IMG/VR virus record: IMGVR_UViG_3300045988_175328
Coordinates: 160,001 to 224,000 of that record
Strand: one strand, 5' to 3'
DNA length: 64,000 nucleotides
Origin: a virus
Numbering within the stretch: the stretch's first letter is position 1; every line of letters begins with the position of its first letter. A model generated the notes under the pieces. The model was not told the origin of the DNA. It made no database searches and worked only from the letters and a program-made list of their open reading frames with translations. Of the stretch, positions 20,404 through 48,127 are shown piece after piece. Made by a program: the position numbers and the translations under genes.

Positions 20404-20594
20404 GGAGGGGGAAGTGTTTTATGAAGATATTAGAGTGCTGAGAAATCATGCCCCCGGGTGCTTGATTCTCGGAACTCTCACTACTTTTGCGCCATATAGT
20501 AGCCAGGCGCATTTCTAAATGTGGTTACGACGAGCCTTTCTGACTGGAGCTCGTTTCAATCCAGTCGAATTTGTTCAGAAAAGGAGAAATTATC

Positions 20595-23500
20595 ATGAAC
20601 AAACAAAACATTCAAAACAACAAAAATTTAAAAGCTGTCGTATTGGCAGCAGTAGATGCAGCAGTAGCTGCTGATGTGCGCGTGGTTAATACCACTGCGG
20701 CGGTAACAACCGCAGAAGCAGTAGTTACTGAAACTGCAGAAACACTTGCGCGCGCAGCGGTACAGTTTCAAACATTTATCAACAATTTTGTAGTAGAAGG
20801 AGGCGAGTATCGTAGCTTCATGGGCATTCTATCTGATGTAGGATTTACACATCCAGATCTTGTTAAATGGGTGCGTAAACAAAAATGGACAGAAGCAATG
20901 TCTATTTGGAGAGAGGGTCAAGGATACACACGTAATTCTTTCCTTTGTGATGAAGACTGGAATACATTCCTCGAATTACGGGAAGCCCTCCTTCAAGCGC
21001 GCAATGCGTACAAAAACGCAAAACGTAAATTAGCTAGAAAAGAAGTCGCATTAAAAGCAGCAAAAAAAGAGGCAGCAAAAGCCTTATTAGCAGAGAAATC
21101 TGCAAACAAACAATGGAAAAAGGCGAGAAAGGATGCGAAAGAAGCAAGAGCTACTGAAGCAGCAGTAGCAGTCGAAGAGGCTCGATTAGAAAAAGCACGA
21201 AAACGTGCTGAAAAAGTGGGTCCGAAGGAACCGCCAAAACAAAGAGTGGCCGTAGCTGTTGCTGGTCTTGAGTCCATGTTAGAATGGATCGAATCTAGAA
21301 AGGTAGCTGTTACTAAAACAGTTGTATTAGAAAATACAGCTAAATTAGTAACAGAAGCTAACGCAGCTGTTGAGTACGGTTATATGGATGCTAGAACTGG
21401 AGAATTTGTTTCTACAGAAGGAACAAAAGAGTTCTCTGGTGCTAGATTCAAAACTGGTGCTATCAACATTGCCGATAAAAATACTGCTAAAGCAACAGCA
21501 AAAGCCAACGCTACTGCTAATGGTAAAGATTTAGATGGAGACGTCATAAATCGCTTCGTTAAACCTAGAAATATCCTTGATGGATTCAAACTTAAATTGC
21601 AAATGTTTGGATCTAAAGTACGTGTGCGTAACGTACTTAAAGGTAATCGTAAAGGTTTTAAAGCTGTAATGGGACCAAAAGCACAAGTTGCTATTAAGTC
21701 CATTATCGTTGACGGTAGCGACGTAATGGCTAATGGTGAAGGTGTAAAAGCTATGGCAGTAGCAACTACATCCTCCATTAGCTATATTGTACGTACAGCA
21801 ATTCGTCTTGGCGAAGAAAAAGGATGGGCTGAAGAGCTTGTTCTTAGAAATTCTTCTATTAAGACTGGCTATATGGATGGCAACATCGGTATCAACTCTC
21901 ATAGAGAGATGACATCGATGGAAGCCGATTTAACATATATGACTGCAGAAGTATCTGCTAATTATGTGTTGAATGGCTTAATCTCCATTCATATCGATAA
22001 AGAGGATGAGGAAGGCGTATCCTTCACAAAGGGCATTCGTCAAGCAGAATTCATTATCGTTGATGGAATTAAATACATTCCGTTAATGGTTGAGTCTGTT
22101 GCGAAGACTCGTCTATACGATACAGTATGGACAGCTGAGCATCTGGCTAACCAATGGCGCGAAGTGCTTCGTGTAGCGACAGGAGGAATCTCTGACAGTA
22201 TTACTCTAATGAAAGAGTTAACTAAAGCTCTTAAATTGAGAAGCCGTTTGGGAATGGGGTTCTCTCCTAGCTATGAGTTCGAAATCGATCTTGCACGTTG
22301 GGGCGTTGTGTATCTTGACGCTTCTATCGATGCAATCGACGGACAAGCTTACGGAAGCAGAGCTATGATGGAAGAGCTTCTTGAACTAGCTGGCGTGAAC
22401 TCATGGCAAGTTCGCACGAATACAGGTAAAGGACAACTCGTTCCAATGAAAAGAATGAAACGTCTACTTGCTGTATTGTGCGAACAATACGGTCTTGAAC
22501 TCGTTTACGTTTCTGACGTTGACGAAGTTCAAGCAGCTATTGATGCAGCAAGAGCTGAAGGTAAAAGAGTAGCCGTTGTTGTTGGTAACGCCGAACATAT
22601 TGGCATGATCGGCGATATGAATTTCTTTAAAGGAATTCCGACTATCAATGATGGTGGCATTGTTCGTCTAAGCGTCTTGAGAAATCTTGCACCAACAGGC
22701 AACGGCTCTCACTTCGCTTACCAGGCAGCAGTGGGTGCTTTATGCTCTTACGAATGGGATAATAAAGACCGTTTCGTAAAAGCATTGGCTATGCAAGCCG
22801 TTGAAAAATTCACAGAAGCTTTCAATGGCTGTGCTGTTAATAAATCTGTAACTGATTTGTTTGCAGCATTAGTTGGAGTAAAAGGATTGGCTGGCGAAGC
22901 TGATATCATCAGCGAATTAGCCAACGGTGCATTTACTCCAGCTATGTATGGCATTAAAGAGCTTTCCTATGCGTTAAGAAACGAGCAACAAGTTGTTCGT
23001 GGTAGTGCATGGAAAGTTTCTTGCCCAGGCATGAAGGACGAGCTATTTAACGAAGCTATTCTTGAAGGAGCTGGCCTACTTGTTGTAGAAGGAATTGTTT
23101 CTAATAACAATCCTTTACTAAAACAAGGCGATTGGGTGATGGCATTGAGATACCCACATTCCAATGGGTTCTCTTTCGTTAAAATCAGACTTGTAACAGT
23201 ATCTGAAGCTATCGAAAGAGTGAACAACTCTTCCGCGTTTGCGGCTCAAAAAGCTGTCATGATCGATGAGCTATTATCCCTTGGTGATAATAACATCATG
23301 GTAGACAGCAGCCGTGAGGTATTGGAAGCATTAGCTGGTATGGATTTTGATGGAGACGTGATCTCTGTCTTAAATCCAGAAGAAGCAGAGTTGCTTTTGC
23401 CAATGGATGAGCTACGTACAGTCATTGCTCCGATCGTAACGAAAGCTCAAGAAAAAGAGCTTGTTGTTACAGGAAACTTTGAAGATACAATGCAACATCT

Positions 23501-25397
23501 TCAAAGCGAGATGGCAGCTAATGAAACTAAGTACGTTGGCGAAATCTCCAATGGAGTAATGAAAGCAACTGAGTTCTTGGGTCTTCCTAAAGATGAACAA
23601 AGAAAAATTGTGGCAGAAATTGTCCGCAATGGAAATCTAAGCCACAATGGCTTATTGCCTACGTTCAACTGGGAGGAACAAGTAACTTGGGTTGAAGGAA
23701 AAGAAGGATTCGTACTTAGCGATGAGTCTACAACTCCTCAAGCTTTAGTTGCTATGAAAAATGCGTTCTTCGATAAAGTTGATGAACGAAACTACTCTGT
23801 AGAAAGTTTCATCAACTTCGCAGAATACGTTGTCATCATGTCTGGTCCAACGCAAGGATTCGTAATTGATGCGGCGAAAAAATTCTGTCCAATCGTAGAC
23901 TTAGCAGAAGATATCTTCTCCAACTTAAGTCTTGGATGGAAAAGATTCGCTCCAACAATGGTGCTTACATGCAATGAGTATGGAGAGTTCTCCAAAGGTA
24001 TGTCTTATAACTTTGGCGAAGAGAACTCTAGCATTACTCTTACAGTAGGCGCATGTATTCAGGTAGAAGCTTTCAAAGCGTTTGCGGTGGAAGCTTCTAA
24101 AGCTATCTTAAATGCATTTGCTGGAGAGGATGCATCTAAAGCTAACTGGAAAGCATTTGAAGACGCATTGAAAAAAGAGTCTTTAATGTCTTTGGTTGGT
24201 GGTAAGATGAACTCTGCTAGAAAGAACTGCAGAAACATTGCTGCTGGAGCTGCAGCTGCGATTAAAGTTATCGACAACCAAATCGCAGAAGCTTGCGGCG
24301 AAGAAAACATTCCTAGTAAAACAATGAAGGAATGGAGCGACGCTATCGGCTGCATGTTTGCTGCATCTGGTACAATCAATCCTCTTGGATTACGTGCTTA
24401 TGCATCCAGCAAAACATTACGTCCAGCAATCTTGAAAGCAATGCTTGACGCTGCTGAAGTAAAATCCATTCCTGTAGAAATTGGATTTACTTCTATGGCA
24501 AGAGTTGCTTTTGCGAAAGCGAATGTTGGAGAAAAAGTATTCTTCGAAAACTCTAAAGCTGCTGATGCTAACGGAGTAATTCTTCTACACTCTGGTTTAA
24601 CAGGTTACTACAAAGTATCTGTTAAAACAGAAGAAGTAGAAGAAAACGGAGAAACAATCTCTGTAGAGACATACTTCGTAGAAGTGCCTGTGTCCGAAGT
24701 ATTAGGCATCGAACCGATGAAAACAAATCGTTTCGTTGCTCACTTAGGATACGAAGGTGCCGATGCTGAAGTCGCTAGAAAGTTTAATGCTGAATTAACT
24801 AAGTTCGACTTCTGCGCGGAAGGTACGTTCGCTTTCTATGGCACGATGAAAGAACTAAACAATCTTATGATTGAAAAGTTTGGCGAAGGTGTCTTAAGAG
24901 ACGTATTGGTATCAACAATAACTGGGCTAAAAAACGGTGAAGACGTTTATAGCCAACAGTTTGTTGATTTCATCGCTCTTGCTAATGGTCACGCTACTGA
25001 TCCGAAGTATGCAGCTGATGACAAACATGACCGCGTATTCTTTGTTCGCAAAGATGAGAATGGTCGGGTTGTGGTTATGAGATCATTGCCTAACCAAGCA
25101 ATGGCTTATGGCCATGAAGCGTTTAAGCTAAGAGGCATGTTCGCTGGAGAACTAAGATTAGTTAGTTACATCTTAGAAGGAAAAGCTAAGTCTGACAAAA
25201 AGGGCTATGTTAATAGCTACTTATTGTTAGAGCACAAAACTTTAGCTCCTAAGCAAGAAATCAGTGCGTATATCAATGGTTTAATTACTAAATATGCGGC
25301 TGATTTCAAAGCAGCTGTCTTAAATAAAAAGTTCGAATTAGGTTGCCTTGGTAGCCTAGTTCAAACTGTATTATCTGATGAAGAAATCATTGGATAA
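20595..25397 (+). CDS. giant single-chain two-barrel RNA polymerase candidate (YonO / cellular-RdRP / crAss-vRNAP lineage)
   Basis: The ATG at 20595 has an AAAGGAG SD. The ordered motifs are QVRTNTGKG (22407-22433), RYPH (23148-23159) and MDFDGDVISV (DFDGD 23343-23357). The N-terminal region is A/V-rich and contains a KAE coiled coil. GC content is visibly higher than in the flanks. Confidence 0.7.
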   Translation: MNKQNIQNNKNLKAVVLAAVDAAVAADVRVVNTTAAVTTAEAVVTETAETLARAAVQFQTFINNFVVEGGEYRSFMGILSDVGFTHPDLVKWVRKQKWTEAMSIWREGQGYTRNSFLCDEDWNTFLELREALLQARNAYKNAKRKLARKEVALKAAKKEAAKALLAEKSANKQWKKARKDAKEARATEAAVAVEEARLEKARKRAEKVGPKEPPKQRVAVAVAGLESMLEWIESRKVAVTKTVVLENTAKLVTEANAAVEYGYMDARTGEFVSTEGTKEFSGARFKTGAINIADKNTAKATAKANATANGKDLDGDVINRFVKPRNILDGFKLKLQMFGSKVRVRNVLKGNRKGFKAVMGPKAQVAIKSIIVDGSDVMANGEGVKAMAVATTSSISYIVRTAIRLGEEKGWAEELVLRNSSIKTGYMDGNIGINSHREMTSMEADLTYMTAEVSANYVLNGLISIHIDKEDEEGVSFTKGIRQAEFIIVDGIKYIPLMVESVAKTRLYDTVWTAEHLANQWREVLRVATGGISDSITLMKELTKALKLRSRLGMGFSPSYEFEIDLARWGVVYLDASIDAIDGQAYGSRAMMEELLELAGVNSWQVRTNTGKGQLVPMKRMKRLLAVLCEQYGLELVYVSDVDEVQAAIDAARAEGKRVAVVVGNAEHIGMIGDMNFFKGIPTINDGGIVRLSVLRNLAPTGNGSHFAYQAAVGALCSYEWDNKDRFVKALAMQAVEKFTEAFNGCAVNKSVTDLFAALVGVKGLAGEADIISELANGAFTPAMYGIKELSYALRNEQQVVRGSAWKVSCPGMKDELFNEAILEGAGLLVVEGIVSNNNPLLKQGDWVMALRYPHSNGFSFVKIRLVTVSEAIERVNNSSAFAAQKAVMIDELLSLGDNNIMVDSSREVLEALAGMDFDGDVISVLNPEEAELLLPMDELRTVIAPIVTKAQEKELVVTGNFEDTMQHLQSEMAANETKYVGEISNGVMKATEFLGLPKDEQRKIVAEIVRNGNLSHNGLLPTFNWEEQVTWVEGKEGFVLSDESTTPQALVAMKNAFFDKVDERNYSVESFINFAEYVVIMSGPTQGFVIDAAKKFCPIVDLAEDIFSNLSLGWKRFAPTMVLTCNEYGEFSKGMSYNFGEENSSITLTVGACIQVEAFKAFAVEASKAILNAFAGEDASKANWKAFEDALKKESLMSLVGGKMNSARKNCRNIAAGAAAAIKVIDNQIAEACGEENIPSKTMKEWSDAIGCMFAASGTINPLGLRAYASSKTLRPAILKAMLDAAEVKSIPVEIGFTSMARVAFAKANVGEKVFFENSKAADANGVILLHSGLTGYYKVSVKTEEVEENGETISVETYFVEVPVSEVLGIEPMKTNRFVAHLGYEGADAEVARKFNAELTKFDFCAEGTFAFYGTMKELNNLMIEKFGEGVLRDVLVSTITGLKNGEDVYSQQFVDFIALANGHATDPKYAADDKHDRVFFVRKDENGRVVVMRSLPNQAMAYGHEAFKLRGMFAGELRLVSYILEGKAKSDKKGYVNSYLLLEHKTLAPKQEISAYINGLITKYAADFKAAVLNKKFELGCLGSLVQTVLSDEEIIG

Positions 25398-31901: not shown

Positions 31902-32135
31902 ATGGAAAACTTGTGCGAATTATTAATGGAAGAAAAAGAAATAGGATTAGTTCAGTCTGTCGAGATTGAAGACGACTTATATCTATATGAATATCCAAGC
32001 GGCCGAGCACTCGTTAAAGAAATAGACGGGTACGCTACTTGTGACGTAGAGGTGGACGGAAGAAGATTCTTTTCAGATATCCATCTGCCATATAAAGATG
32101 TGGTGCGAGAATTAAACAGAGTCGTAGAATTATAA
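31902..32135 (+). CDS. small acidic protein
   Basis: ORF with SD AAGGAG. Confidence 0.55.
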   Translation: MENLCELLMEEKEIGLVQSVEIEDDLYLYEYPSGRALVKEIDGYATCDVEVDGRRFFSDIHLPYKDVVRELNRVVEL

Positions 32136-32140
32136 TAATA

Positions 32141-32700
32141 AGGGGTGCCCGAGCGAAGCGAGGGGTTAACGCCCCTTTTATTTTTTTCTAATAACCGTCT
32201 CCAACGGATCTAGCGAGCGAAGCGAGCGATTAACGAACCTACTATGTTTAAAGGGCGAGCGAATGCGAGCCCTTGTTAATGGACTTGTTTATATGAGGCG
32301 AGCGAAGCGAGCCGTTAATGTACCTATCTTAAGTTTAGTAAGGGCGAGCGAAGCGAGCCCATTAAAGAACTAACTTAAAGATAGTAGCGATGCGAACGAA
32401 GTGAGCCGAGCTGTTGGTCCTTACTATAGTATAGTCGGCGAGTGAAACGAGCCGTTATAGTATAGTACTTATATATAGTATTAATAGAAAGAACCCGAAG
32501 GGTTATTATGTATAATAGTATATATAAGCGAAAAAGGGAGCGTGAGCGACAGAAGGAGAGGCGGCGAACGAAGTGAGCCGTTGTTTGTTTCTTTGTTCCT
32601 GTATATATAAGAAAAGACAAGACAATTTGTTTTCGTCTTTTTGTTATATATAGTATAAAGAAAAAGAATAAATGGGCGCGAGCGGCAGCGAGCGATTGTT
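32141..32700 (+). repeat. array of at least 9 GCGAGCGAAGCGAGC-type hairpin repeats
   Basis: Perfect GCGAAGC cores at 32153, 32217, 32302 and 32348. Degenerate copies near 32253, 32386, 32437, 32560 and 32674. Spacing is irregular at about 45-115 nt. The first copy is embedded in the terminator of the upstream gene (GGGG..CCCC plus a T-run, 32162-32187). Confidence 0.8.
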
Positions 32701-32827
32701 TGTTCTTGTATACTATATAATAGTATAAGAAAGACAAGAATTTTTTTGTTTGTCTTATAGTACTATATAGTATTAATAGTAAAAGAAATAAAAAAAAGAA
32801 TGCCGGAAGTGGTCTTGAAGAGATTTA

Positions 32828-33481
32828 TGGTAATATAAGTCATGGTACATGACTTAACCCGTGGGAATTGTGGACGACCCTTCCTTCCGGTGCATGTACC
32901 TTTTTTATTTTTTGTCGCTGGCTCTTATTTAATTTTTGTTCTTGTTATATACTATATATATAATAATAAAAGAAATTAAAATAAGAATCGGCGCCGAGAA
33001 AATTTTGAGTAATATAAGTCTCGAAGAGACTTAACCGTGAGGTAGAATGGCCGGATGAATTGCTATTGTCTTATACTATATATATAGTAAGACACATAAC
33101 ATATCGCCGCCCGAACCCTTTAAAAAATTTTATTATTAAATTAATTTATATTTTTTAATTTTTTCGCCCCTGGTATTTTATTATAGTACTATATAGTAAT
33201 AATATATAAACATAACAACATAATAATAATCGCCCGGGCTTCCTGAAAAAATTTTTGGTAATATAAGTCTCGAAGAGACTTAACTCCTTACCCCCGGTAT
33301 CTTGATCCCGTAGGGGTCTTATTGTACTGTATCTACACTATAGTACTTACCGAACAAAATGTTTCTTATCTTACTTTTTATTCGGTTGTACATAGGGTTA
33401 GACACTTCGGTACATTAAAAAATTTTTTTTCTAAAAAAATGACTAACGTAACTTTTATGAGTAATATAACTAACGTTAGTT
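32828..33481 (+). repeat. four tandem ~200-nt units, each with a TG(G/AG)TAATAT extended -10-like box directly followed by a perfect hairpin
   Basis: Units at 32828-32855 (AAGTCATG-GTA-CATGACTT), 33006-33032 and 33256-33281 (AAGTCTC-GAA-GAGACTT), and 33458-33481 (AACTAAC/GTTAGTT). Each is preceded by an A/T run, a GC palindrome (CGGCGCCG, GCCCGGGC) and TATAGTACTATA-type palindromes. Confidence 0.7.
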
Positions 33482-33540
33482 TTCTTCGAAGAGAAGTAAG
33501 CTGAAACTGCAAGGCTGCCTGCTCTACGACTGCCCGTACG

Positions 33541-34200
33541 GTTTTTTATAGAAGAATGGTAGTGTATTAATACTGTACTGTTAGTACTACTAGTACTGTA
33601 CTACTCGACCCACACCTTTTGTGGCTGTGCCCTAAAAGGACGGGCCACTCTAATAGTTTTTTTACAGAAATTGTAGTTAATTTGTACTATTTCTAATGCA
33701 ATATTAATAGTAAAACTGCATTGGTTTTTCTGTACTTATAGATATACTAATTGCATTAGTTTTACAGATACAATTGTATTGGTTTTACAGTACCAACAGT
33801 TAACTAACACTACAGTACTTACAGTACTAATAAGACCGTACCAATGGTTTTAATGGTACTATAGTAAGATTGTACCATTGCCAATACAGCACTGCAAATA
33901 AAACCGTACTGTTTTGCAGTACTAAATGGTAATTAAATTGGTATGTTAATACAGTACTAACAAAACTGAACCAATGCTATTAATAGTACTACAGTTAAAC
34001 TGTATCAACAAGACAGTACCTATAGTACTATCAGAACTATAGTTAGATTGTATCAATAAGACAGAACCAATAGAACTATTGAAGCTATAGAAAGACTGTA
34101 CTAATTAAACTGTACTAATAGTATTAACAGTACATATAGTAAAGTAGTATTATATTAATAATTGTAATAGTAGTATTAATAATAAGAAGAATAAAGAAAA
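33541..34200. repeat. GTAC-rich iteron-like array
   Basis: I count 21 GTAC (8 of them AGTACT) between 33575 and 34133. A degenerate ~13-nt unit A(A/G)A(C/T)TGTA(C/T)(C/T)AAT recurs every 20-35 nt. There is no ORF. Confidence 0.7.
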
Positions 34201-34214
34201 GAAAAATTTTTTTC

Positions 34215-34241
34215 TTAAGGGGCAAGCCCCTTAACAACCCC
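34215..34241 (+). repeat. TTAAGGGGCAAGCCCCTTAACAACCCC element, copy 2
   Basis: Exact 27-mer preceded by GAAAAATTTTTTTC. Confidence 0.85.
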
Positions 34242-34462
34242 AAGTTGGTGAAGTTTAAAACAGCAGTAATATAAAGACTGTGTTTTTTGTATCACCTCCA
34301 ATACCGAAACACACATCATAATGTTTCCTCCTTTCTAAAATGATGAGAACTGAGAGCTCGGTTGAAACTTAGACCGAGCCTTGGTCTTATCGCGTTTACG
34401 CGTAATATACGAGTCCTGTAAGGACTCGATAACTGGAAACGATGTTAATTTATAGGAATATA

Positions 34463-34487
34463 GCCGCCCGTTTGGGCGGCTTTTTTT
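34463..34487 (+). terminator. intrinsic terminator
   Basis: GCCGCCC-GTTT-GGGCGGC followed by TTTTTTT. It closes a ~250-nt hairpin-rich ORF-free stretch (34242-34487). Confidence 0.8.
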
Positions 34488-34508
34488 GTTTTATTTGAGG
34501 TGTTATTT

Positions 34509-35237
34509 ATGGGATTTGATGGAAACTATAAAGACGAAAAATGGATTGTTTCGATAAACCGAGAGAAGAATCTTATTATCGAAGAACGAGGTGAGTTGTA
34601 TGAAGTTCAATGTATCGGAATGAATGGCAATGTGTTAGTCGACAGAGTATTCTTTATGGGCCCGATTAGCGAAGAAGAAGTTTGGGAACTTATCTGGAGA
34701 CTGAGATTGGAAGGTATAGACGGAGAACTAACGATAGAAGAAAGTGGTTTGAACTATAAGGATTGGTTTGACGGGTTCGGTTTATACGAAAGCGATTTGT
34801 TATTTGGAGGATCCTGTTTATGGAGAAGAACTGTCGGAGATGTTATTATCGATATCGGTATATCAGGTAACGGTAGAAATATTATGTACGAGAGAAAAGA
34901 AGATAGTTTCTTTGAAGTTTTAGTATATAGTGGTAACAGTAAAATTAGAAGTGAAATTAGTCAAAGTAAGAGCTTTGGTATTGGTAGTCCTTATAATAAT
35001 AGTGATATTCTTAGTAATAGTATAGATAGTGTTATTATTGATAATAGTAATAGTAGTAATAATAGTGGAGATGGTAATAATGGTATATATAGTTATAACT
35101 ATAGTGGATTACCTTGTTATTATAGAGGATATATTAGTTACTATATAGTATTAGAGATTATAGATATGTTTATTAGAGAGTATGGAGGAGTTAAAGAGAA
35201 AAGAAAAATTTTTTTTCTTAAGGGGCAAGCCCCTTAA
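34509..35237 (+). CDS. two-module paralog (N-terminal module plus WF/YYIVLEII module)
   Basis: The ATG at 34509 follows GAGGTG. It aligns with 37057-37665 and 37655-38173 (LYDV/LYEV, EEE(V/M)(L/W)ELIW.LR.E, YKDWF.GF, YYIVLEII). It contains an N/S-rich low-complexity insert. Confidence 0.6.
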   Translation: MGFDGNYKDEKWIVSINREKNLIIEERGELYEVQCIGMNGNVLVDRVFFMGPISEEEVWELIWRLRLEGIDGELTIEESGLNYKDWFDGFGLYESDLLFGGSCLWRRTVGDVIIDIGISGNGRNIMYERKEDSFFEVLVYSGNSKIRSEISQSKSFGIGSPYNNSDILSNSIDSVIIDNSNSSNNSGDGNNGIYSYNYSGLPCYYRGYISYYIVLEIIDMFIREYGGVKEKRKIFFLKGQAP

Positions 35238-38579: not shown

Positions 38580-39152
38580 GTGATTAGTAGTATAACCGCC
38601 ACTAGACTCGTTAGTATGATGAGTCGTGGTGACGTTTTTTATTTTGTCAGATACATGAATGGCGAATATGAGATTATAGCTCAAATTGTTAAAGGTGTCG
38701 CTAACTCTTTATATACACGCACTGAACATTTTTATTTTAAAGGCGCCAAAATATATTATTGGGAGTTTATGTCTTGGACAAAAGAAAATAAAAGAAGAGT
38801 CGGCAATTTGTATGAGATAAACATAGATGATGATATTATTACAGATATATTTTATCAAATGCACGATGAATTAAAGGACAAAGTTGGCGCCAAATATTCT
38901 AATGCATTTATGACAAGAGCTGATACTTTACTTGGTAAATTTATTAATCAGGATGATGATTATGATTACTCTTATAATAAAAAAGATTTTTATGGTTTAG
39001 AATATATTGATGAAGTAAAATCAGATACTATACCTAATAGTATTAAAAGAACTAAAATTAAAACTATTAGTAGTATGTTCTTAGATGTTTTATGCGGCGA
39101 ATGGTACTATAATATAGATCCTAAATTAATAGATATTAAGAAAGTAAAGTAA
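38580..39152 (+). CDS. YMNG/YYWE-family paralog (~190 aa)
   Basis: GTG start after GAGGTGAAG. RLVSMMSRGDVFYFVRYMNGEYEII..HFYFKGAKIYYWE..LYEINID..IKRTKIKTI. Confidence 0.6.
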   Translation: MISSITATRLVSMMSRGDVFYFVRYMNGEYEIIAQIVKGVANSLYTRTEHFYFKGAKIYYWEFMSWTKENKRRVGNLYEINIDDDIITDIFYQMHDELKDKVGAKYSNAFMTRADTLLGKFINQDDDYDYSYNKKDFYGLEYIDEVKSDTIPNSIKRTKIKTISSMFLDVLCGEWYYNIDPKLIDIKKVK

Positions 39153-39166
39153 GAAAGGAGTAATCG

Positions 39167-39766
39167 ATGGAAGATATTAATAGATTCTATAAACATTTTG
39201 ACGGCACTTTAAAGAACGGCCTTAAATTTGTCGATCTTGCTTTATTCGTATCTTTAATTAACAATAAAGATTATACTACAATATATTTCTATGAGAATAG
39301 CGATATTGAAATTAAAACTTTTAGATACGTTGTTTCAGGAGAGCGGTTATATTCTTATGAAGACATGTATATTGTTAAAGATAACTTATATTGTATAGAA
39401 AGAGTAAGAAGCAGCAATCATTCTAATGATGATACTGTTCTTATTTCGAAACGTGTGTTTAAATATAATATATCTAATAATGATATTATTAGCGCCTATT
39501 TAGAATATAGTAGAGAATATGACCCTAAATTAATTAAAGAATCGGCTCGAAATATAGCAAGAGCTCTTAGCTTAAAAGGAAGTATCTTTGCTTTTGAAGA
39601 AGACACATTGTCTATTGAAATATGTCCTGGAATTGAAAGATGCAAGAAAATTGTACGAAGTACTCCATCTATTATTTCAGATATTCCGGATGTATTAATA
39701 AATAAAGAATACTTTAAGCCTGAACTTATATGGAGCGACGAAAGAGCATCAACGTTTGGCAAATAA
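39167..39766 (+). CDS. distant YYWE-family paralog
   Basis: Similar length and architecture (..IYFYENSDIEI..MYIVKDNLYCIE..). Confidence 0.5.
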   Translation: MEDINRFYKHFDGTLKNGLKFVDLALFVSLINNKDYTTIYFYENSDIEIKTFRYVVSGERLYSYEDMYIVKDNLYCIERVRSSNHSNDDTVLISKRVFKYNISNNDIISAYLEYSREYDPKLIKESARNIARALSLKGSIFAFEEDTLSIEICPGIERCKKIVRSTPSIISDIPDVLINKEYFKPELIWSDERASTFGK

Positions 39767-39805
39767 AAATCCTCATTTGTGAGGCGTATTTAAAGAGCAT
39801 ATATT
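39767..39805 (+). promoter_or_regulatory. AAATCCTC hairpin doubling as a sigma-A-like promoter
   Basis: -35 TTGTGA at 39777-39782, a 17-nt spacer, and -10 TATATT at 39800-39805. The gene start is at 39833. Confidence 0.55.
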
Positions 39806-39832
39806 TGTATTAATTCATAAGGAGAAATAATT

Positions 39833-40417
39833 ATGAGAACAGAAGAAGCGTTAGCTATGTTAATTGCTATGGTTAGTCATATGTATAGTGCTAAACGTTA
39901 TGATTATGAATTTAGCAAAGAAATTGTATTAAATAAAAGAGTCGGCGATACTATTATTGAAGATCACTTTTTAATTGAAGGCGAAAGTGATGTATATTAT
40001 TGGCGCGAAAGTAAAGATATTGTTGACGTAGAGAACGGCTTCTTTATTTATGGAAATATTGAATATAGTAAGATCACTTCCTTTGGAAAAGATATTAATG
40101 TATTTATTTCTGAATTTAATGAATTATGCTTAGGTGGCGATAAAGAATTATTAATGGTGCGTTACAATGCAATTAAAGAATTATTATCTGAACGCCGCAG
40201 CTCTAGAATTTATTATTTATCTGGCGATCCGTTCGAAGATTTAGGCGGACGCAATCTCCCAAATGGTATTTCTAGATATGGATGCCGATATGGTGTTTTA
40301 GAGAAATATGCATATTTCGAAACTAAAGGCAATTCTATCGATAAAGTATATGATTTTAAATATATTGTACCTAAAGTTGTCAATAAAAATACTAATTATG
40401 TATTTATTCTTAAGTAA
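39833..40417 (+). CDS. distant YYWE-family paralog
   Basis: ..HFLIEGESDVYYWRESK.. Confidence 0.5.
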   Translation: MRTEEALAMLIAMVSHMYSAKRYDYEFSKEIVLNKRVGDTIIEDHFLIEGESDVYYWRESKDIVDVENGFFIYGNIEYSKITSFGKDINVFISEFNELCLGGDKELLMVRYNAIKELLSERRSSRIYYLSGDPFEDLGGRNLPNGISRYGCRYGVLEKYAYFETKGNSIDKVYDFKYIVPKVVNKNTNYVFILK

Positions 40418-40431
40418 AAAGAAGGTTTTAT

Positions 40432-40734
40432 ATGATCAGCAAAGCTTGGCAGAAATATATATATTGGTTTGATGGTCGATTTTATGTATTAGAAGACCCT
40501 ATTCGTGGAAATAAAGGATTCTGGGAAATTGAAATCGATGAAGATACTTTTGTAAATATATTAACTGATGGATATAGATGTCAAAAATTATATTCCAAAA
40601 AAGAACATAATTATTTTGAAGTTAGCGTCTCTTATGAAACAGAAGATAGCGATAATTTTGTAACTCATACCTTATTATATGTTCCTTACTACGTAGTTTT
40701 AGAGATAATAGAAGGATTGAAGGAATCATTATGA
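40432..40734 (+). CDS. WF/VPYY-family paralog
   Basis: YIYWFDGRFYVLEDPIRGNKGFWEIEID..VPYYVVLEIIEGL. Confidence 0.6.
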   Translation: MISKAWQKYIYWFDGRFYVLEDPIRGNKGFWEIEIDEDTFVNILTDGYRCQKLYSKKEHNYFEVSVSYETEDSDNFVTHTLLYVPYYVVLEIIEGLKESL

Positions 40735-41291
40735 TTAATATAATGCCCGCAATGAATCTTGTTAGTATGATGACAGATGCTGAATATTATATTTTAGTTA
40801 AATATATGAATAGTGATTTTGAAATCATATCTGGAATAAATAAATATATATCTGATTCAATGTATGGTTATGATAAACATTTTTACTTTAAAGATAATAC
40901 TATATACTATTGGGAAACTAATATTTTTACATCTAAAGCAAAAACCAATATAAATGTCAGTGATTTATATGAAATAGATATCGATGAAAAACAAATTAAT
41001 AAATTGTTTAAAAATATGTATCATGAATTATCAGATAAATTAGGCTCTAAATATTCAGATGCTTTTGTTGAAAGAAGAAATAGATTGTATAATAAATTTA
41101 CTTCTAAGGAATCAGTTCCTATTTCTTGTCCAGAAAATAGATTAGAAATTCTTGAGATTGGAGAGAGAACTATTCCTAATAAAATAAAAAGAACTGAAAT
41201 AGAAACTGTTTATAGTATTGTCTTAGAAATATTAGATACTAGATGGAATTATACTATTGATTATAATTTAATAGATATGATTAAAGCCTAA
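40731..41291 (+). CDS. YMNG/YYWE-family paralog
   Basis: NLVSMMTDAEYYILVKYMNSDFEII..HFYFKDNTIYYWE..IKRTEIETV. Confidence 0.6.
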   Translation: MINIMPAMNLVSMMTDAEYYILVKYMNSDFEIISGINKYISDSMYGYDKHFYFKDNTIYYWETNIFTSKAKTNINVSDLYEIDIDEKQINKLFKNMYHELSDKLGSKYSDAFVERRNRLYNKFTSKESVPISCPENRLEILEIGERTIPNKIKRTEIETVYSIVLEILDTRWNYTIDYNLIDMIKA

Positions 41292-41320
41292 TAATTATTT
41301 CGTATAAAAGGAGGTTTTTT

Positions 41321-41902
41321 ATGCTAAGAGAAATGGAACTTATTAGACTTGTAAGTCTTATGAGTAATGCTAATTTTTATATCTTTATTAAATATATGAA
41401 TGGCAATTATGAGATTGTGGCAGAAACTTCTATTACTATGTCTGCTCATATTTATTTACATAATAAACATTTTTATTTAAAAAATGGGCAATTATATTAT
41501 TGGGAAACTAAAATTAATTCAAATACTGAAACAGGAGTAGAATATAAAGAGGTTTACAATCTATATGAAATAAATATAAATAAAGATCGAATTAATCAAT
41601 TATATGAGATGATGCATAACAATTTATTAGAAAAACTTGGTTCTGATTATTCACATCAATTTGTTAAAAGAACTGATCGTTTATTCGACAGATTTACTTC
41701 TAATGAATTATATGGTCTTTATATTTATAATCATAAAAATGGAGACATGGGAAAAATGCCTTTAGAAATTAGTAATGGAACTATTCCCAGTAAACTAAAA
41801 AGAACTAAGATTAAAATTATTAACAGTATATTATTATCTTATTCTAGTAACATATGGAAGTATTGTATAGATTACAAGTTAATTAATATGAATAAAATAT
41901 AA
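41321..41902 (+). CDS. YMNG/YYWE-family paralog
   Basis: RLVSLMSNANFYIFIKYMNGNYEIV..HFYLKNGQLYYWE..LKRTKIKII. Confidence 0.6.
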   Translation: MLREMELIRLVSLMSNANFYIFIKYMNGNYEIVAETSITMSAHIYLHNKHFYLKNGQLYYWETKINSNTETGVEYKEVYNLYEININKDRINQLYEMMHNNLLEKLGSDYSHQFVKRTDRLFDRFTSNELYGLYIYNHKNGDMGKMPLEISNGTIPSKLKRTKIKIINSILLSYSSNIWKYCIDYKLINMNKI

Positions 41903-41908
41903 GTTTTT

Positions 41909-41933
41909 TTAAGGGGCTCCGCCCCTTAACAAC
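41909..41933 (+). repeat. TTAAGGGGC..GCCCCTTAACAAC element, variant copy 5
   Basis: TTAAGGGGCTCCGCCCCTTAACAAC. The stem is conserved and the loop differs. Confidence 0.75.
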
Positions 41934-41967
41934 TTCGATATTTGTATTTGATATAAGGAGAAATATT

Positions 41968-42381
41968 ATGGACATCAAACAAATCTCACGATTAATTTGT
42001 ATGACAAGTCAAGGAAATAGTGTTAAAACATCTTTTTTTGAAAATGCTATTTTCATGACAGTAGTTAAAAATAAAATTCTTTGTGGCACTGAATGTATTC
42101 ATCAATATCATTATAAAATTAAAGATAATGAACTTGAGTTTTTTGAAAATTTTATAGGGCCAAATGAATTTGAATTAAAATCTCCATCTTTAAAACTAAA
42201 ATATAGTTTAAACGATTGGATGGAATACTCTGAAATTATTGGTGAAGGATATGCTGAATATCGATCTGAAGAGATTGAATCAATTCTTCTAGAATATAAG
42301 AATGATCAAGAGATATTTAATCGATCTGATTCTATTGCAGATACTGATTTCTCAATGAACATTCCTTACCATAAAAAGTAA
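41968..42381 (+). CDS. distant family member / hypothetical protein
   Basis: ORF with SD AAGGAG. Confidence 0.5.
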   Translation: MDIKQISRLICMTSQGNSVKTSFFENAIFMTVVKNKILCGTECIHQYHYKIKDNELEFFENFIGPNEFELKSPSLKLKYSLNDWMEYSEIIGEGYAEYRSEEIESILLEYKNDQEIFNRSDSIADTDFSMNIPYHKK

Positions 42382-42382
42382 C

Positions 42383-42411
42383 TTGACAGAGAATATAGTA
42401 TTTGTTACAAT
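42383..42411 (+). promoter_or_regulatory. sigma-A-type promoter
   Basis: TTGACA at 42383-42388, a 17-nt spacer, and TACAAT at 42406-42411. Confidence 0.7.
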
Positions 42412-42461
42412 TTAATTGTCCAATACAATAACACATTGTTTTTCTCCTGTAATTTTGCGTA

Positions 42462-42490
42462 AGCTGGCTTTATGCCAGCTTTTATGTTTT
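42462..42490 (+). terminator. leader hairpin plus T-run between promoter and SD (attenuator or 5' stabiliser)
   Basis: AGCTGGC-TTTAT-GCCAGCT followed by TTTATGTTTT, directly before the SD AGAAGGTGAG. Confidence 0.5.
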
Positions 42491-42502
42491 AGAAGGTGAG
42501 TT

Positions 42503-43006
42503 ATGTTACATGAACATTGGAAGCGATTGCAAGAACCTGTTGATGAGTTAATGCAAGAAGAATTATTGAAACACATAAAAGAATATTGTAAAGAAAATAA
42601 ATCTTTAGAAGCTCAATGTTTAAATGACATACTTAATAATACTTCTAAAGAAAATATATTAGATTATTATACTTCTTTTGCTGGAGAAGACTTTAAAGAA
42701 ACGAATTTAATATTTAAATCAGTTAATGGCGCGATAGCTGCTATGATTCGATATAAAATAACTAATAACACACTAGTAACAGTTGGTATTATTGTTGCTG
42801 ATAAATATAATAATAGTTCTTTCATTTATAATCTAATTAAATCTTTAAATATTCTTTTAATTAATAGATATAAATTAGATTTTACTTATGTTTTAAAAAT
42901 AATCAAACAAGATCTTATCAAAGAATTTGAAAATATCAAAGATTTTAGAAATGCGTCGATTAATAAAAAAGAATTTGCTTTGTTTTTATGTTATCTTGAC
43001 ATGTAA
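42503..43006 (+). CDS. hypothetical protein
   Basis: ORF with an SD. Confidence 0.55.
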   Translation: MLHEHWKRLQEPVDELMQEELLKHIKEYCKENKSLEAQCLNDILNNTSKENILDYYTSFAGEDFKETNLIFKSVNGAIAAMIRYKITNNTLVTVGIIVADKYNNSSFIYNLIKSLNILLINRYKLDFTYVLKIIKQDLIKEFENIKDFRNASINKKEFALFLCYLDM

Positions 43007-43058
43007 AATATTATATGTTATTATAATAGTGTAAGCACGCAACACTCTATTCAAAAGA

Positions 43059-43103
43059 AACAGCCCCATGCAGTATAATTCTGTATGGGGCTGTTTCTTA
43101 TTT
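43059..43103 (+). terminator. intrinsic terminator
   Basis: AACAGCCCCAT 43059-43069 / ATGGGGCTGTT 43085-43095, followed by TCTTATTT. Confidence 0.7.
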
Positions 43104-43121
43104 ATGAAAGAAGGTGAGATT

Positions 43122-43688
43122 ATGATTGATTTCATGTATATAGCTAAACTTATTAGTATTATGACTTCTAGTGATTTTTATTATGTCATTAAATATGTAA
43201 ATAAAGATTATGAAGTTATATCTCAAACAGGAAATGAAGTAGGAGATTCAGTCTATACATATAATAAACATTTTTATTTTAAAAAGAATAAAATATACTA
43301 TTGGGAATCTAAAATATTTCATTTAAATAAAGCGACAGAAACAAAAATAGAAGTTAATGATTTATATGAGATTAAAAATAATGCTCATGGAATTAATAAA
43401 CGATATGAAATGATGTATGATGATTTATTAGAAGAACTAGGTCCTGAATATTCAGAGCTCTTAGAAAAAAGAACGGATAAATTATTTGAACATCTTGTTT
43501 CTAAAGAGCCTATAGGGCTTTATTGTTATTATATCGAATCTGCTCCTGAAATTGAAAATAATATGATTCCTCCTAAATTAAAAAGAACTAAAATTAAAAC
43601 TATTAATAGTTTGTTCTTAGGATTTTCTGATATTAAATATGATTATTGTATTACTTATGGATTATTAGATATAATTAAAGTTAACTAA
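43122..43688 (+). CDS. YMNG/YYWE-family paralog
   Basis: The ATG at 43122 follows GAAGGTGAG. The track start at 43068 lies inside the terminator hairpin. KLISIMTSSDFYYVIKYVNKDYEVI..HFYFKKNKIYYWE..LKRTKIKTI. Confidence 0.6.
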   Translation: MIDFMYIAKLISIMTSSDFYYVIKYVNKDYEVISQTGNEVGDSVYTYNKHFYFKKNKIYYWESKIFHLNKATETKIEVNDLYEIKNNAHGINKRYEMMYDDLLEELGPEYSELLEKRTDKLFEHLVSKEPIGLYCYYIESAPEIENNMIPPKLKRTKIKTINSLFLGFSDIKYDYCITYGLLDIIKVN

Positions 43689-43714
43689 TAATTATACATT
43701 AAGGGGGTGCGACT

Positions 43715-44179
43715 ATGCTTAGTAATCATTATATTTCAATGCTTGTTGCATTATTATCAATAGGCGATAAAATTAATGTTCAAGAACATGAAGATTGTCT
43801 TCTTGTTTCAGTCGTAAAGACTGAAAAAGTTCAAGATAAAACATGGAAAGACATATATACTTTTGAATTTAGAGACGATATTATTTTTTTAGCAACTCAT
43901 AGTACGTATAATGATAAAGATACGTCTTTAAAAATAACTAAAGATAAAGTAATTCATTCTATTAAAATAGAGCCAAAAGAAATAGAAAACTTATATGATG
44001 AAATGTTCGATAAGTTATTTCATTTTAATAAGAAAGAGGCTCAAAAATTCATGGCGAGACGAATACAAATATGCAATTTCTTGCGACGCAAAGACTATTT
44101 AGATGGGTCTATCCAATTAAAATATCCTGAATTTAATTATGTTATGTTAAGAGAAATGTTTAACATGGAAAGATTATAG
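43715..44179 (+). CDS. distant family member / hypothetical protein
   Basis: ORF with SD AAGGGGG. Confidence 0.5.
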   Translation: MLSNHYISMLVALLSIGDKINVQEHEDCLLVSVVKTEKVQDKTWKDIYTFEFRDDIIFLATHSTYNDKDTSLKITKDKVIHSIKIEPKEIENLYDEMFDKLFHFNKKEAQKFMARRIQICNFLRRKDYLDGSIQLKYPEFNYVMLREMFNMERL

Positions 44180-44187
44180 GCAATTAA

Positions 44188-44826
44188 ATGAGCAAAGAAC
44201 CAAAAAAACTAAAAATAAATACAGAGCGCGCTTTTGATAATATGTTTAAAAATAATTTTAATAATACCATGTTAAATAATGGCATGGAATTATCGTATGC
44301 CATGGCTTTGTTTACTATTGTGAATACTACGAATATAATCAATATCTATACTTATAATAACGGAGATATTGAATTAATTGGTGAGAATAAGCATATTTTT
44401 AATTCTAGAACAAGAATATTTAAAATTCATTTATATTTTGGCGATAAAATTTATTACTGGAAGGATTCTAGTTTAAAAGAATCTAAAGATGAAAATACTG
44501 TTCAAAAATATGCCGATGAATACTATGAAATCTGTTTAGATAAAGAAGGAATACTTAAATTATTTAAAGAAGTTCTTAATGAATATAGCAAAGCAGAGCT
44601 CATTGAAGAAAGTATTTCATTCTTGTATCGTTTTCAAGAAGGATTAAATAAAATAACTTATGCTAATAAATATGGCGAAGTCAGAAAACATAATGTCGAT
44701 CCAAATTCCAAGATTAAAATTAGACGAGGTTCCACATATACTTCTGTCCGAGCATTTTTTAATGATCCAAATAGACGAGAAACATCTTCTATTAATGAAT
44801 CGTTTTTAAATCTACGAATTGTTTAA
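44188..44826 (+). CDS. distant YYWE-family paralog
   Basis: ..IHLYFGDKIYYWKDSS..YYEICLDKEGI.. Confidence 0.5.
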   Translation: MSKEPKKLKINTERAFDNMFKNNFNNTMLNNGMELSYAMALFTIVNTTNIINIYTYNNGDIELIGENKHIFNSRTRIFKIHLYFGDKIYYWKDSSLKESKDENTVQKYADEYYEICLDKEGILKLFKEVLNEYSKAELIEESISFLYRFQEGLNKITYANKYGEVRKHNVDPNSKIKIRRGSTYTSVRAFFNDPNRRETSSINESFLNLRIV

Positions 44827-47630: not shown

Positions 47631-48127
47631 AGGGAAACTTGCAGGTAGAAATAGCTTTTAGCTATTCAACGAAGAAACTGAATTGCTGGGAACCCCTAAA
47701 GCTCAATTAACTACAATATAGATTTGAAATATAATCAAGTATGAATGTGGCGAAAGCAGAAAAAATAATTGAGATAAGATATGGTTAAACCCTAAGTCTT
47801 AAGATAATGGGCAATCAGCAGCGAAGCTCCGAATAGGAGAACGTTCAACGACTATTCCTCGTGAGGGAAGTACACCGTAAGCGATTGACGGTGGAAGTGG
47901 TGTCGCCTAAGTCGCAATAGCGATATGGATAAGATATAGTCTGTGCTTATGCGAAAGTATAAGATGCGCGTAATGGCGCTGGTTAGGAATAGCGATCCTG
48001 ATTGAACGAGACCTCACAAAACATGGTTCTAAAATGTCCTGTAAAAGTTTTACTGAAAAGTTGTTTTTTAGTAAAAGTATGTTATAATAATCTCGTAATA
48101 TAGTAATTAGAAAGCGAGGTGATAATA

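Follow-up and report, generated by a model that had tools for sequence, protein, structure and literature searches.

The building blocks of the element described here, an array of ten small hairpins in a 64,000-nucleotide stretch of an uncultured phage of about 220 kb (positions 160,001 to 224,000 of IMG/VR record IMGVR_UViG_3300045988_175328; this whole stretch is called the window below), are already known from other systems: the DNA mini-hairpin, the CGAG block, the hairpins of single-strand initiation (ssi) signals, the promoters of phage N4 and arrays of repetitive extragenic palindromes (REPs). The mini-hairpin of Hirao and colleagues, d(GCGAAGC), d(GCGNAGC) or d(GCGNNAGC), requires a GC..GC stem, a rule also given as two closing G-C pairs in the order GC..GC or CC..GG, and forms with GNA triloops only, its stability falling in the order A > G > C > T at the middle base; d(GCGAAGC) melts at 76.5 °C and d(GCGAATGC) at 70 °C, whereas r(GCGAAAGC) melts at 39 °C (PMC13037366). 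The same 2026 review states that single-stranded DNA-binding protein (SSB) binds mini-hairpins poorly, that standard thermodynamic parameters miss their stability, and that their sequences are found at the complementary-strand origins of phages G4, St-1 and alpha3, in ssiA of RSF1010 and in the N4 promoters (PMC13037366); an earlier note on the window was correct on both the stability of d(GCGAAGC) and its occurrence in phage origins. Tandem G.A pairs in a C-GA-G context form the CGAG block, a DNA structure defined by nuclear magnetic resonance and seen in hairpins of the human AUTS2 promoter (PMC10085684). The ssi signals (G4, St-1, alpha3, RSF1010 ssiA and ssiB, and the single-strand origins, or sso, of rolling-circle plasmids) are strand-specific, SSB-resistant hairpins in noncoding DNA. 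The virion RNA polymerase (RNAP) of N4 uses promoters that are hairpins of 5-7 bp with a cGNAg loop, in which the closing C:G pair and the G and A of the loop are what extrusion and stability depend on, and SSB leaves the template-strand hairpin intact (PMC4496689). REPs are short, imperfect, GC-rich extragenic palindromes, often placed just 3′ of genes and often clustered.

The units of the array combine several of these properties. Each can be described as a d(GC-GNA-GC)-type mini-hairpin clamped by one CGAG block, in which a C:G pair, two tandem sheared G.A pairs and a G:C pair are predicted, with a short, variable Watson-Crick stem outside. The GC..GC stem required of mini-hairpins is present, and the loop spectrum (GAA, then GGA, GCA and GTA, and also GAAT) matches that of proven formers (PMC13037366); the differences are that the mini-hairpin is here always clamped by tandem G.A pairs and a variable outer stem, and that some copies have AC/GT or GT/AC inner stems that lie outside the published melting data. 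The AUTS2 hairpins have the same block of C:G, sheared G:A, sheared A:G and G:C, likewise capped by GNA or GNNA loops (PMC10085684), but consist of runs of CGAG repeats, whereas the present units are viral or prokaryotic, carry a single block, are arrayed with 40-130-nt spacers and are conserved via compensatory change. With the ssi signals the array shares its confinement to one strand, a fold backed by covariation and a noncoding setting, and the same hairpin lies on the virion strand of a microvirus and of circular Rep-encoding single-stranded DNA (CRESS) viruses; the known ssi and sso elements, however, each consist of one larger structure with several hairpins, which a defined primase or RNAP recognises, whereas here ten small, near-identical units occur in a double-stranded DNA (dsDNA) phage, and a priming role is what we propose for them. 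The N4 promoters resemble the units in being short cGNAg hairpins with a sheared G:A pair that are stable on one strand and persist with SSB (PMC4496689), but they are three dispersed elements before early genes, with a perfect 5-7-bp stem and a conserved -8G and +1C, as opposed to ten clustered copies with GA mismatches in the stem. REPs, in turn, are species-specific, about 35 nt long, usually alternate in orientation in bacterial interspersed mosaic elements (BIMEs) and carry a 5′ GTAG for RAYT, whereas the present core is common to several phyla and to viruses, measures 17-24 nt and is co-oriented, and no GTAG stands 5′ of the hairpins in the window. The composite GA-clamped mini-hairpin has no Rfam family, a literature search on its 11-15-mers gave no relevant paper, and we found no literature description of phage arrays of it or of its placement on the virion strand of single-stranded DNA (ssDNA) viruses. 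The reading that we favour, with a probability of roughly 40%, is that the hairpins fold on exposed ssDNA, resist SSB and mark a priming or origin-type site.

Copies, fold and loop rules of the array

A structure-aware scan for the frame GA / 2 bp / loop / 2 bp / GA places the array at 32148-32694, with every copy on the + strand, which is the gene-sense strand. The unit has the architecture N2-6/GA/2 bp/G-N-A loop/2 bp/GA/N2-6; seven copies have a triloop (GA starts at 32151, 32215, 32300, 32346, 32394, 32440 and 32566), and three a four-base loop, namely GAAT at 32257, GTGA at 32538 and GGCA at 32680. The earlier note had seen an array of at least nine hairpin repeats: all nine positions are real, and the additional copy at 32538 brings the total to ten. 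Copy 1 (32140..32189, with the hairpin CCC-GA-GC-GAA-GC-GA-GGG at 32148-32164) is part of an intrinsic terminator, and copy 2 (32213..32227; GC-GA-GC-GAA-GC-GA-GC followed by ATTAACG) is identical in five related genomes. Copy 3 (32251..32274), AAGGGC-GA-GC-GAAT-GC-GA-GCCCTT with its 4-nt GAAT loop, is missing from one relative (L124); copy 4 (32297..32313; GGC-GA-GC-GAA-GC-GA-GCC then GTTAAT) is deleted in two others (L127 and L132); and copy 5 (32342..32360; GGGC-GA-GC-GAA-GC-GA-GCCC then ATTAAAG) has in L124 an outer stem GGGGC/GCCCC and the loop GGA. The next two copies have changed inner stems, copy 6 (32392..32406; GC-GA-AC-GAA-GT-GA-GC) to AC/GT by a compensating change and copy 7 (32436..32454; CGGC-GA-GT-GAA-AC-GA-GCCG) to GT/AC, the orthologues of the latter being GC-GGAT-GC or GC-GAAT-GC. 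Copy 8 (32537..32550; G-GA-GC-GTGA-GC-GA-C), in which the flanking pair is inverted to G-C, is kept in all relatives. Copy 9 (32562..32580; CGGC-GA-AC-GAA-GT-GA-GCCG then TTGTTTG) has a GC/GC inner stem in L124 and L127, and copy 10 (32677..32694; CGC-GA-GC-GGCA-GC-GA-GCG then ATTGTTTG) has the loop GTCA in L127 and L132 and the outer stem CCGC/GCGG in L124 and L127.

The hairpin repeats are restricted to this one locus of the 64-kb window. The 15-mer GCGAGCGAAGCGAGC, with up to three mismatches, has seven matches in the window, all on the + strand between 32149 and 32578, as against 0.50 ± 0.77 in shuffled sequences, none of which reached seven in 100 attempts; the heptamer GCGAAGC alone is weakly enriched (10 occurrences against 4.9 expected, 4 of the 10 within the array). 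The copies have spacings of 42-126 nt without helical phasing, and the spacers are partly homologous to one another. The 3′ flank is conserved as RTTAAY/GTTGTTTG, which agrees with the GTTAA-type follow-on noticed earlier, and the 5′ flanks are without conservation. A 120-aa minus-strand open reading frame (ORF) at 32375..32737, described in the earlier note as built from the repeats, does span them; it runs opposite to every other gene and is a mechanical product of the repeats, not a gene. The hairpins stand as GC-rich islands amid AT-rich palindromes and a field of TA(T/C)AGTACT repeats.

Each of the six related genomes found to span the region (L121, L124, L127, L131, L132 and L133) has kept the array, with position and strand unchanged, so that the absence or lack of conservation in close relatives that the earlier note had named as evidence against its proposal is not what we observe. 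These relatives are metagenomic contigs of 214-225 kb, reached via homologues of a 1608-aa protein and of a 77-aa protein encoded beside the array. In an alignment of 40 distinct copies from the related genomes, which were chosen for Watson-Crick inner stems, a choice that bears on the values that follow, all six stem pairs vary on both sides, the paired cells amount to 86.7%, a value attained by none of 500 shuffles (69% in these), and the covariation score is 0.367 as against 0.119 in shuffles (again 0 of 500), with registers slid along the alignment scoring at most 0.10. An unconstrained listing of copies contained no in-register copy with a broken inner stem. Both GA dinucleotides are invariant in 40 of 40 copies, and the pair flanking them is C-G in 35 and G-C in 5; the inner stem is GC..GC in 36 of the 40, with AC..GT in four and GT..AC in two, at one pair each; and the outer stems range over CCC/GGG, GGC/GCC, GGGGC/GCCCC and CCGC/GCGG. 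Such changes are also found at one and the same site: the inner stem of copy 6 is AC/GT in the window and in L121, GT/AC in L124, and GC/GC in L127 and L131. Mean pairwise identity is 84% in hairpin columns versus 72% in the spacers between hairpins. Double substitutions at orthologous copies speak for selection at each site. We rely on covariation because the folding z-scores of single copies are mostly not significant under both DNA and RNA parameters. The units are single-strand hairpins with the fold proposed in the earlier note, its stems backed by covariation and its tandem G.A positions invariant.

Other explanations of the repeats were considered and rejected on these grounds. Direct-repeat protein sites (GCGAGC twice) leave the paired changes unexplained, as Chi-like sites do the pairing constraint; a dsDNA origin of the iteron type is at odds with changes that are compensatory between arms and with unphased spacing, and a CRISPR-like or ToxI-like RNA repeat array or decoy with repeats that are degenerate and irregularly spaced. 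A CsrA-type GGA sponge does not agree with loops that are mostly GAA, and a K-turn would have an asymmetric bulge, which is absent here.

The number of copies among the relatives varies from 9 to 11, and its changes look like recombination between copies; in particular, the loss of copy 4 in L127 and L132 looks like recombination between copies 3 and 4 that left a fused copy 3/4. Extra copies were seen at two further positions: in L124 (at 11857) one lies an intergenic spacer upstream, 30 nt before the ribosome-binding site of the next gene, and in L121 (20306) and L131 (4658) a partial one lies just upstream of copy 9.

The structure is asymmetric between the strands. The sequence requirement of the CGAG block, 5′-C-GA-G-3′, is found in register on both arms, the sheared geometry being putative, whereas its complement would have C.T mismatches and a TTC loop, so that the structure is possible on the + strand only. 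Most copies have d(GC-GNA-GC) or d(GC-GNNA-GC) as their innermost 7-8 nt, and the loops of the phage family are GAA, GGA, GAAT, GGAT, GGCA, GTCA and GTGA, plus one CAA; a rule of GNA or GNNA, with GAAB tolerated, fits all of them but the CAA. A wider census took the neighbours of seeded copies in 228 viral loci, in the frame CGAGC-N3/4-GCGAG and with a seed that had a GAA loop. Among these neighbours, GNA accounts for 45 of the 78 non-GAA triloops (about 5% expected by chance), and 27 of the 34 tetraloops are GNNA, with GNRA in 6 and GAAA in none. The loops obey the rules of DNA mini-hairpins (GNA and GNNA), not the GNRA rules of RNA.

Copy 1 is plainly also the tip, in RNA, of the intrinsic terminator of the upstream operon. 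Its outer stem of 8 bp pairs 32140-32147 with 32170-32177, the GTTAA at 32165-32169 forming a 3′ bulge, and a U-run follows at 32178-32189; the minimum-free-energy RNA fold has the same architecture at -18.1 kcal/mol, and a terminator scan also flags the site. In L124 the same architecture is retained with a differing, compensating outer stem, GGGTAC/GTACCC (-20.7 kcal/mol, z -3.6). The combination of GC-rich hairpin and U-run that marks Rho-independent terminators is found in copy 1 only, copies 2-10 having no U-run.

The same hairpin in unrelated genomes

The interest of the hairpin lies mainly in the breadth of its occurrence. An exact 16-mer, GCGAGCGAAGCGAGCC, is present in at least 120 IMG/VR stretches with GC contents of 28-69% that are otherwise without similarity to the window; 78% of the matches are intergenic by a crude ORF call, and a G precedes most of them, lengthening the stem. 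Tandem pairs of the exact 13-mer core CGAGCGAAGCGAG, 15-45 nt apart, occur in 117 unrelated IMG/VR stretches and, on the cellular side, in at least 120 contigs of bacteria or archaea; by our own arithmetic on two 13-mers (26 specified bases), chance would give about 10^-3 matches in 10^11 bases. The tandem-pair copies have as neighbours variants whose inner stem is AC/GT or whose loop is GCA or GTA. Clustering of the neighbouring proteins shows that the viral carriers include tailed phages (recognised by their terminase and portal genes), a clade of low-GC phages of about 215-230 kb, genomes with a capsid protein of the nucleocytoplasmic large DNA virus (NCLDV) or polinton type, and 16 small CRESS-DNA virus contigs; it returned terminase, portal and Rep in viruses and housekeeping genes in bacteria, and no dedicated partner protein. 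A short BLAST of the hairpin against cultured phages gave 12 records, with no model phage whose origins or ends have been mapped. The whole layout of the window recurs independently in an unrelated phage, on an IMG/VR contig of 229,888 bp (L057), in which + strand genes are followed by an array of these hairpins interleaved with TATATA palindromes, then by a noncoding stretch of about 3.8 kb that holds small units of promoter plus hairpin, and then by AT-rich small genes; its array includes the variants GCGAGC-GTCA-GCGAGC and GGAGC-NNNN-GCGAC, the latter of the type of copy 8.

In the ssDNA viruses the hairpin keeps to the virion strand. Of the 10 CRESS contigs that have a clear origin (ori) stem-loop, 9 carry it on the strand of the Rep nonanucleotide, either some 50-650 nt from the ori or in the spacer onto which both genes abut with their 3′ ends; four contigs have it right beside the ori stem-loop. 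A GenBank microvirus has seven GNA mini-hairpins, one of them GA-clamped, on the virion strand of its long intergenic region. A generalisation across these carriers is conceivable, though we consider it doubtful: the GA-clamped mini-hairpin with the core CGAGCGAAGCGAG might be a convergently reused, strand-specific ssDNA signal, placed where the exposed strand withstands SSB and where synthesis of the complementary strand, or some other transaction on ssDNA, starts, in ssDNA viruses, tailed and jumbo phages, large genomes resembling those of eukaryotic viruses and prokaryotic chromosomes, of which the array in the window would be a multi-copy version within an origin or control region.

In tailed phages the hairpins lie 0.06-5 kb upstream of terL in 36 of the 40 loci with a recognisable terL, a bias that may partly reflect where intergenic space exists. 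It can be counted for a structural signal in DNA, that is, a packaging site near pac or cos, an ejection pause like that of T5, or an architectural site of the gyrase type. The injection-stop region of T5 is a repeat- and palindrome-rich noncoding block and REP elements bind gyrase, and among the relatives of our phage one contig ends 18 nt before the array and another inside the noncoding region. The orientation of the hairpins relative to terL is, however, variable (same strand in 14 loci, opposite in 21, both in 4), which argues against a role tied to the direction of packaging and equally against one confined to sense RNA; contigs of 214-225 kb run through the region and end elsewhere, at varying places; and no terminase gene was recognised among the ORFs scanned. 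The packaging or end role that the earlier note had listed is thus unsupported by the contig ends of the phage family, and we regard a structural signal as quite improbable. In a few IMG/VR contigs (L077, L071, L031, L112 and L003) the hairpin is also seen in inverted pairs, with 50-300 nt between the two members and often with CCCCCATACCCCC-like C-runs in front; the pairs of L031 and L112 stand 140-350 nt upstream of terL. These may be cos-like structures, or ones resembling miniature inverted-repeat transposable elements (MITEs).

The breadth of occurrence, with arrays among bacterial housekeeping genes, would also be expected of selfish REP- or MITE-like repeats that have proliferated locally, perhaps via an HUH/Y1 transposase acting on ssDNA, and that have no function for the phage. 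The inverted pairs of some viral contigs, the change in copy number between relatives and the presence of an IS605-type TnpB gene in the window are compatible with this. On the other hand, the repeats are confined to a single locus in 64 kb, all of them are co-oriented, unlike those of BIMEs, double substitutions since the divergence of the genomes have kept orthologous copies paired, and no Y1 transposase or RAYT is found among the neighbouring genes at viral or cellular loci, the part of our phage covered being the 64-kb window. We hold it to be the least probable of the explanations considered here.

Single-stranded DNA and RNA as possible sites of action

From a hairpin selected on one strand, loops that follow DNA rules, placement on the virion strand of ssDNA viruses and an AT-rich setting, we infer that the array acts as ssDNA, on the + strand. 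The hairpins would fold when the surrounding AT-rich DNA becomes single-stranded, be it at a replication fork or by supercoil-driven opening; if forks travel in gene direction, it is the + strand that would serve as lagging-strand template and hence be transiently single-stranded. Once folded, they would withstand melting by SSB and offer fixed landmarks for the start of complementary- or lagging-strand synthesis, which might serve primer synthesis or primosome entry in a zone of the ssi/sso type or one associated with an origin, as in the precedents of the complementary-strand origin of phage G4 and of RSF1010 ssiA. They could also keep the adjoining AT-rich DNA open, and copy 1 additionally works in RNA as the terminator tip of the upstream operon.

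Several observations weigh against this proposal. GC skew is positive on both sides of the region, with no sign of a bidirectional origin, and the genes beside it include no recognisable initiator, primase or helicase. The strand bias in CRESS viruses comes from 10 contigs, and the seed that located the viral loci had a GAA loop, while in cellular genomes the hairpins form REP-like arrays among unrelated housekeeping genes of bacterial chromosomes. Nearest-neighbour DNA energies, at -0.7 to -6.6 kcal/mol, are weak and no better than those of shuffles, and the proposed fold is the minimum in 7 of the 10 copies; this weakness can be attributed to the failure of standard parameters to capture mini-hairpins (PMC13037366). 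RNA parameters give the proposed fold as the minimum for all ten copies, at -1 to -12.5 kcal/mol. Copy 3 folds as proposed under both sets (DNA, -6.6 kcal/mol and z -2.9; RNA, -12.5 kcal/mol and z -4.0). Finally, all copies lie on the sense strand, and one of them, copy 1, clearly belongs to an RNA terminator.

The last points are shared by an element acting in RNA, in which the copies, transcribed by read-through from the + strand operon upstream, would be serial terminators, barriers to 3′ exonucleases or insulators that protect late mRNAs and screen off the DNA downstream, a mode of action proposed for bacterial REP/BIME elements. Copy 1 is the apex of a canonical terminator whose outer stem is compensated in L124; the folds of all ten copies under RNA parameters, the sense-strand placement of all copies in both the window phage family and the L057 family, and the position of the array directly 3′ of the last gene in a long co-oriented block are all in keeping with it, and REP elements are known to stabilise mRNA. 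Yet copies 2-10 lack the U-run, the loops are GNA and GNNA, with GNRA unfavoured and GAAA never seen, and the mini-hairpin melts at 39 °C as RNA versus 76.5 °C as DNA (PMC13037366). The mixed orientation relative to terL in other phages and the adherence of the CRESS hairpin to the virion strand, next to the ori stem-loop in four contigs, likewise go against it, and we think it less likely than the ssDNA reading, though a serious rival to it.

Should the ssDNA reading hold, a sequence of 13-17 nt would predict sites of single-stranded DNA action in replicons that share no genes. It would give a handle, from sequence only, on the initiation sites of complementary- and lagging-strand synthesis in uncultured ssDNA viruses and large phages, where such sites are almost never annotated, and would invite a fresh look at the REP-like hairpin arrays that many bacteria carry. 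The asymmetric design, with a stable purine strand and an unstable complement, is a simple physical rule that could be reused in engineering.

The control region and a candidate RNA polymerase

The array forms the left edge, in its first 560 bp, of a dense noncoding control region of 2.4 kb (32136..34499) that holds no credible ORF, contains small-RNA-like units and repeat fields, and adjoins a candidate novel RNA polymerase. It is bounded by the last small + strand gene (31902-32135) and the first AT-rich gene (34500-35237), and thus separates a block of small + strand genes from a long run of very AT-rich small + strand genes. The noncoding region is conserved in five relatives (L121, L124, L127, L131 and L132) with a mean pairwise identity of 79%. 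Two AT-rich imperfect palindromes lie in or beside the array: an inverted repeat with 29-nt arms that are 76% complementary (I6, 32468..32528) falls in the interval between copies 7 and 8, where TATATAGTA cores flank an AACCC-GAA-GGGTT hairpin and motifs of the TATAGTACT type are concentrated, and one with 31-nt arms that are 84% complementary (I2, 32710..32773) follows right after copy 10. The field of TA(T/C)AGTACT repeats accounts for 24 of the 52 one-mismatch matches in the window within 1.6 kb (32461-34041), and a 570-bp stretch (33560-34130) is rich in GTACT repeats; the repeat field is kept in relatives, and the TA(T/C)AGTACT and GTACT repeats look like operator or iteron sites for some DNA-binding protein.

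Five units of another kind are found at 32813-32910, 32996-33100, 33245-33320, 33440-33560 and 34240-34490, with a shared layout of an A/T-rich run, (T)GAGTAATATAAG, a hairpin with a cGNAg-type loop, and TTAAC. The 11-mer TGAGTAATATA together with a cGAAg hairpin also occurs in L057 (7900-8260, opposite strand), and the complement, TATATTAC, is the early-promoter consensus of phiKZ (PMC7058600). Read rightward, the TGAGTAATATA units are candidate small-RNA genes; read leftward, they are candidate promoters of a phage RNAP. The last unit (34275-34490) holds CACCTCC and CCTCCTTTCTAA, which we take to match the 3′ end (the anti-Shine-Dalgarno region) of Firmicute 16S rRNA; a strong terminator (34462-34481, followed by a T-run) closes it immediately ahead of the first AT-rich gene. 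This unit could give a small RNA acting as an anti-Shine-Dalgarno mimic. No tRNA or tmRNA was found by scanning, and Rfam gave no match at gathering score, a permissive scan of 32.0-34.6 kb yielding only chance matches to AT-rich palindromes.

Within the AT-rich small-gene block, ORFs of similar length (186-212 aa) run from 38580 to 44826 in DNA of 24-28% GC and may be a paralogous early-gene family; an IS605-type OrfB/TnpB gene (OrfB_IS605 and a Cas12f1-like TNB domain) lies at 48119-49378 on the + strand. Apart from this gene, the ORFs sampled from the block fell into no PHROG or Pfam family. Searches of GenBank phages, by megablast with 31-35 kb and by tblastn with two proteins, brought up no close relatives, nor did two flanking proteins against IMG/VR. 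Upstream of the array are genes for a DNA-polymerase fragment, large structural proteins, Gp10_C tail-fibre proteins, an amidase (in relatives) and the 1608-aa protein already mentioned.

This protein, encoded at 20571-25397 (+) right after the tail-fibre and amidase genes, has an invariant RYPHxNG motif, followed 62 aa later by LAGMDFDGD, and VRTNTGKGQ upstream; its distant IMG/VR relatives retain KYPKxH..NMLAGMDFDGD. Judging by these motifs, it looks like a single-chain two-barrel RNAP of the kind of crAss gp66, YonO or QDE-1, and the RYPH..DFDGD combination suggests a two-barrel enzyme rather than a T7-like one of the N4 type. Relaxed scans of Pfam and PHROG and a profile search of PDB sequences gave no match, and an AlphaFold model of residues 470-1330 from 8 sequences had a predicted local distance difference test (pLDDT) value of 41 and was unusable.

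A putative virion RNAP raises the prospect that the hairpins, extruded by supercoiling or exposed in ssDNA, are N4-like promoters for it. The candidate gene is suitably placed, with the tail-fibre and amidase genes on one side and, on the other, the block of small genes ahead of the array, and seven of the ten copies in the window carry a 3-nt cGNAg loop; further, the crAss-like virion RNAP gp66 prefers ssDNA, with long intergenic regions as the most transcribed early targets (10.1101/2020.03.07.982082). The hairpin-promoter reading of the earlier note nevertheless fits poorly. With the hairpin on the template strand, as in N4, transcription would run leftward, antisense to every gene, and the conserved flank, RTTAAY, is on the 3′ side, with no conserved -4..+1 segment on the 5′ side; the ten copies are packed into 560 bp, none of them before a gene and none upstream of the downstream genes. 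The identical hairpin is found in CRESS viruses, a microvirus, bacteria and archaea, and thus in settings that lack any such enzyme; distant relatives of the RNAP candidate (L363-365) have no array within 10 kb, and the assignment of the DFDGD protein as an RNAP is by motifs. We therefore regard N4-like promoters as improbable, and prefer an ssDNA priming or origin-type site.

The RNAP candidate lies next to a variable part of the genome. Four independent assemblies (L124, L127, L129 and L130) break 0.9-1.8 kb upstream of its gene, in a variable gene cassette between the tail-fibre gene and the candidate, which suggests a hypervariable region rather than a physical end of the genome. In otherwise near-identical genomes (L126-L130) the 1608-aa gene is replaced by a version with 35-40% identity, and in those with the most divergent RNAP (L128-L130) the next gene encodes a 658-aa protein with AAA_33, PolyA_pol, PolyA_pol_RNAbd and HD domains, which, from its domain composition, looks like an enzyme of the RNA-repair or CCA-adding type.

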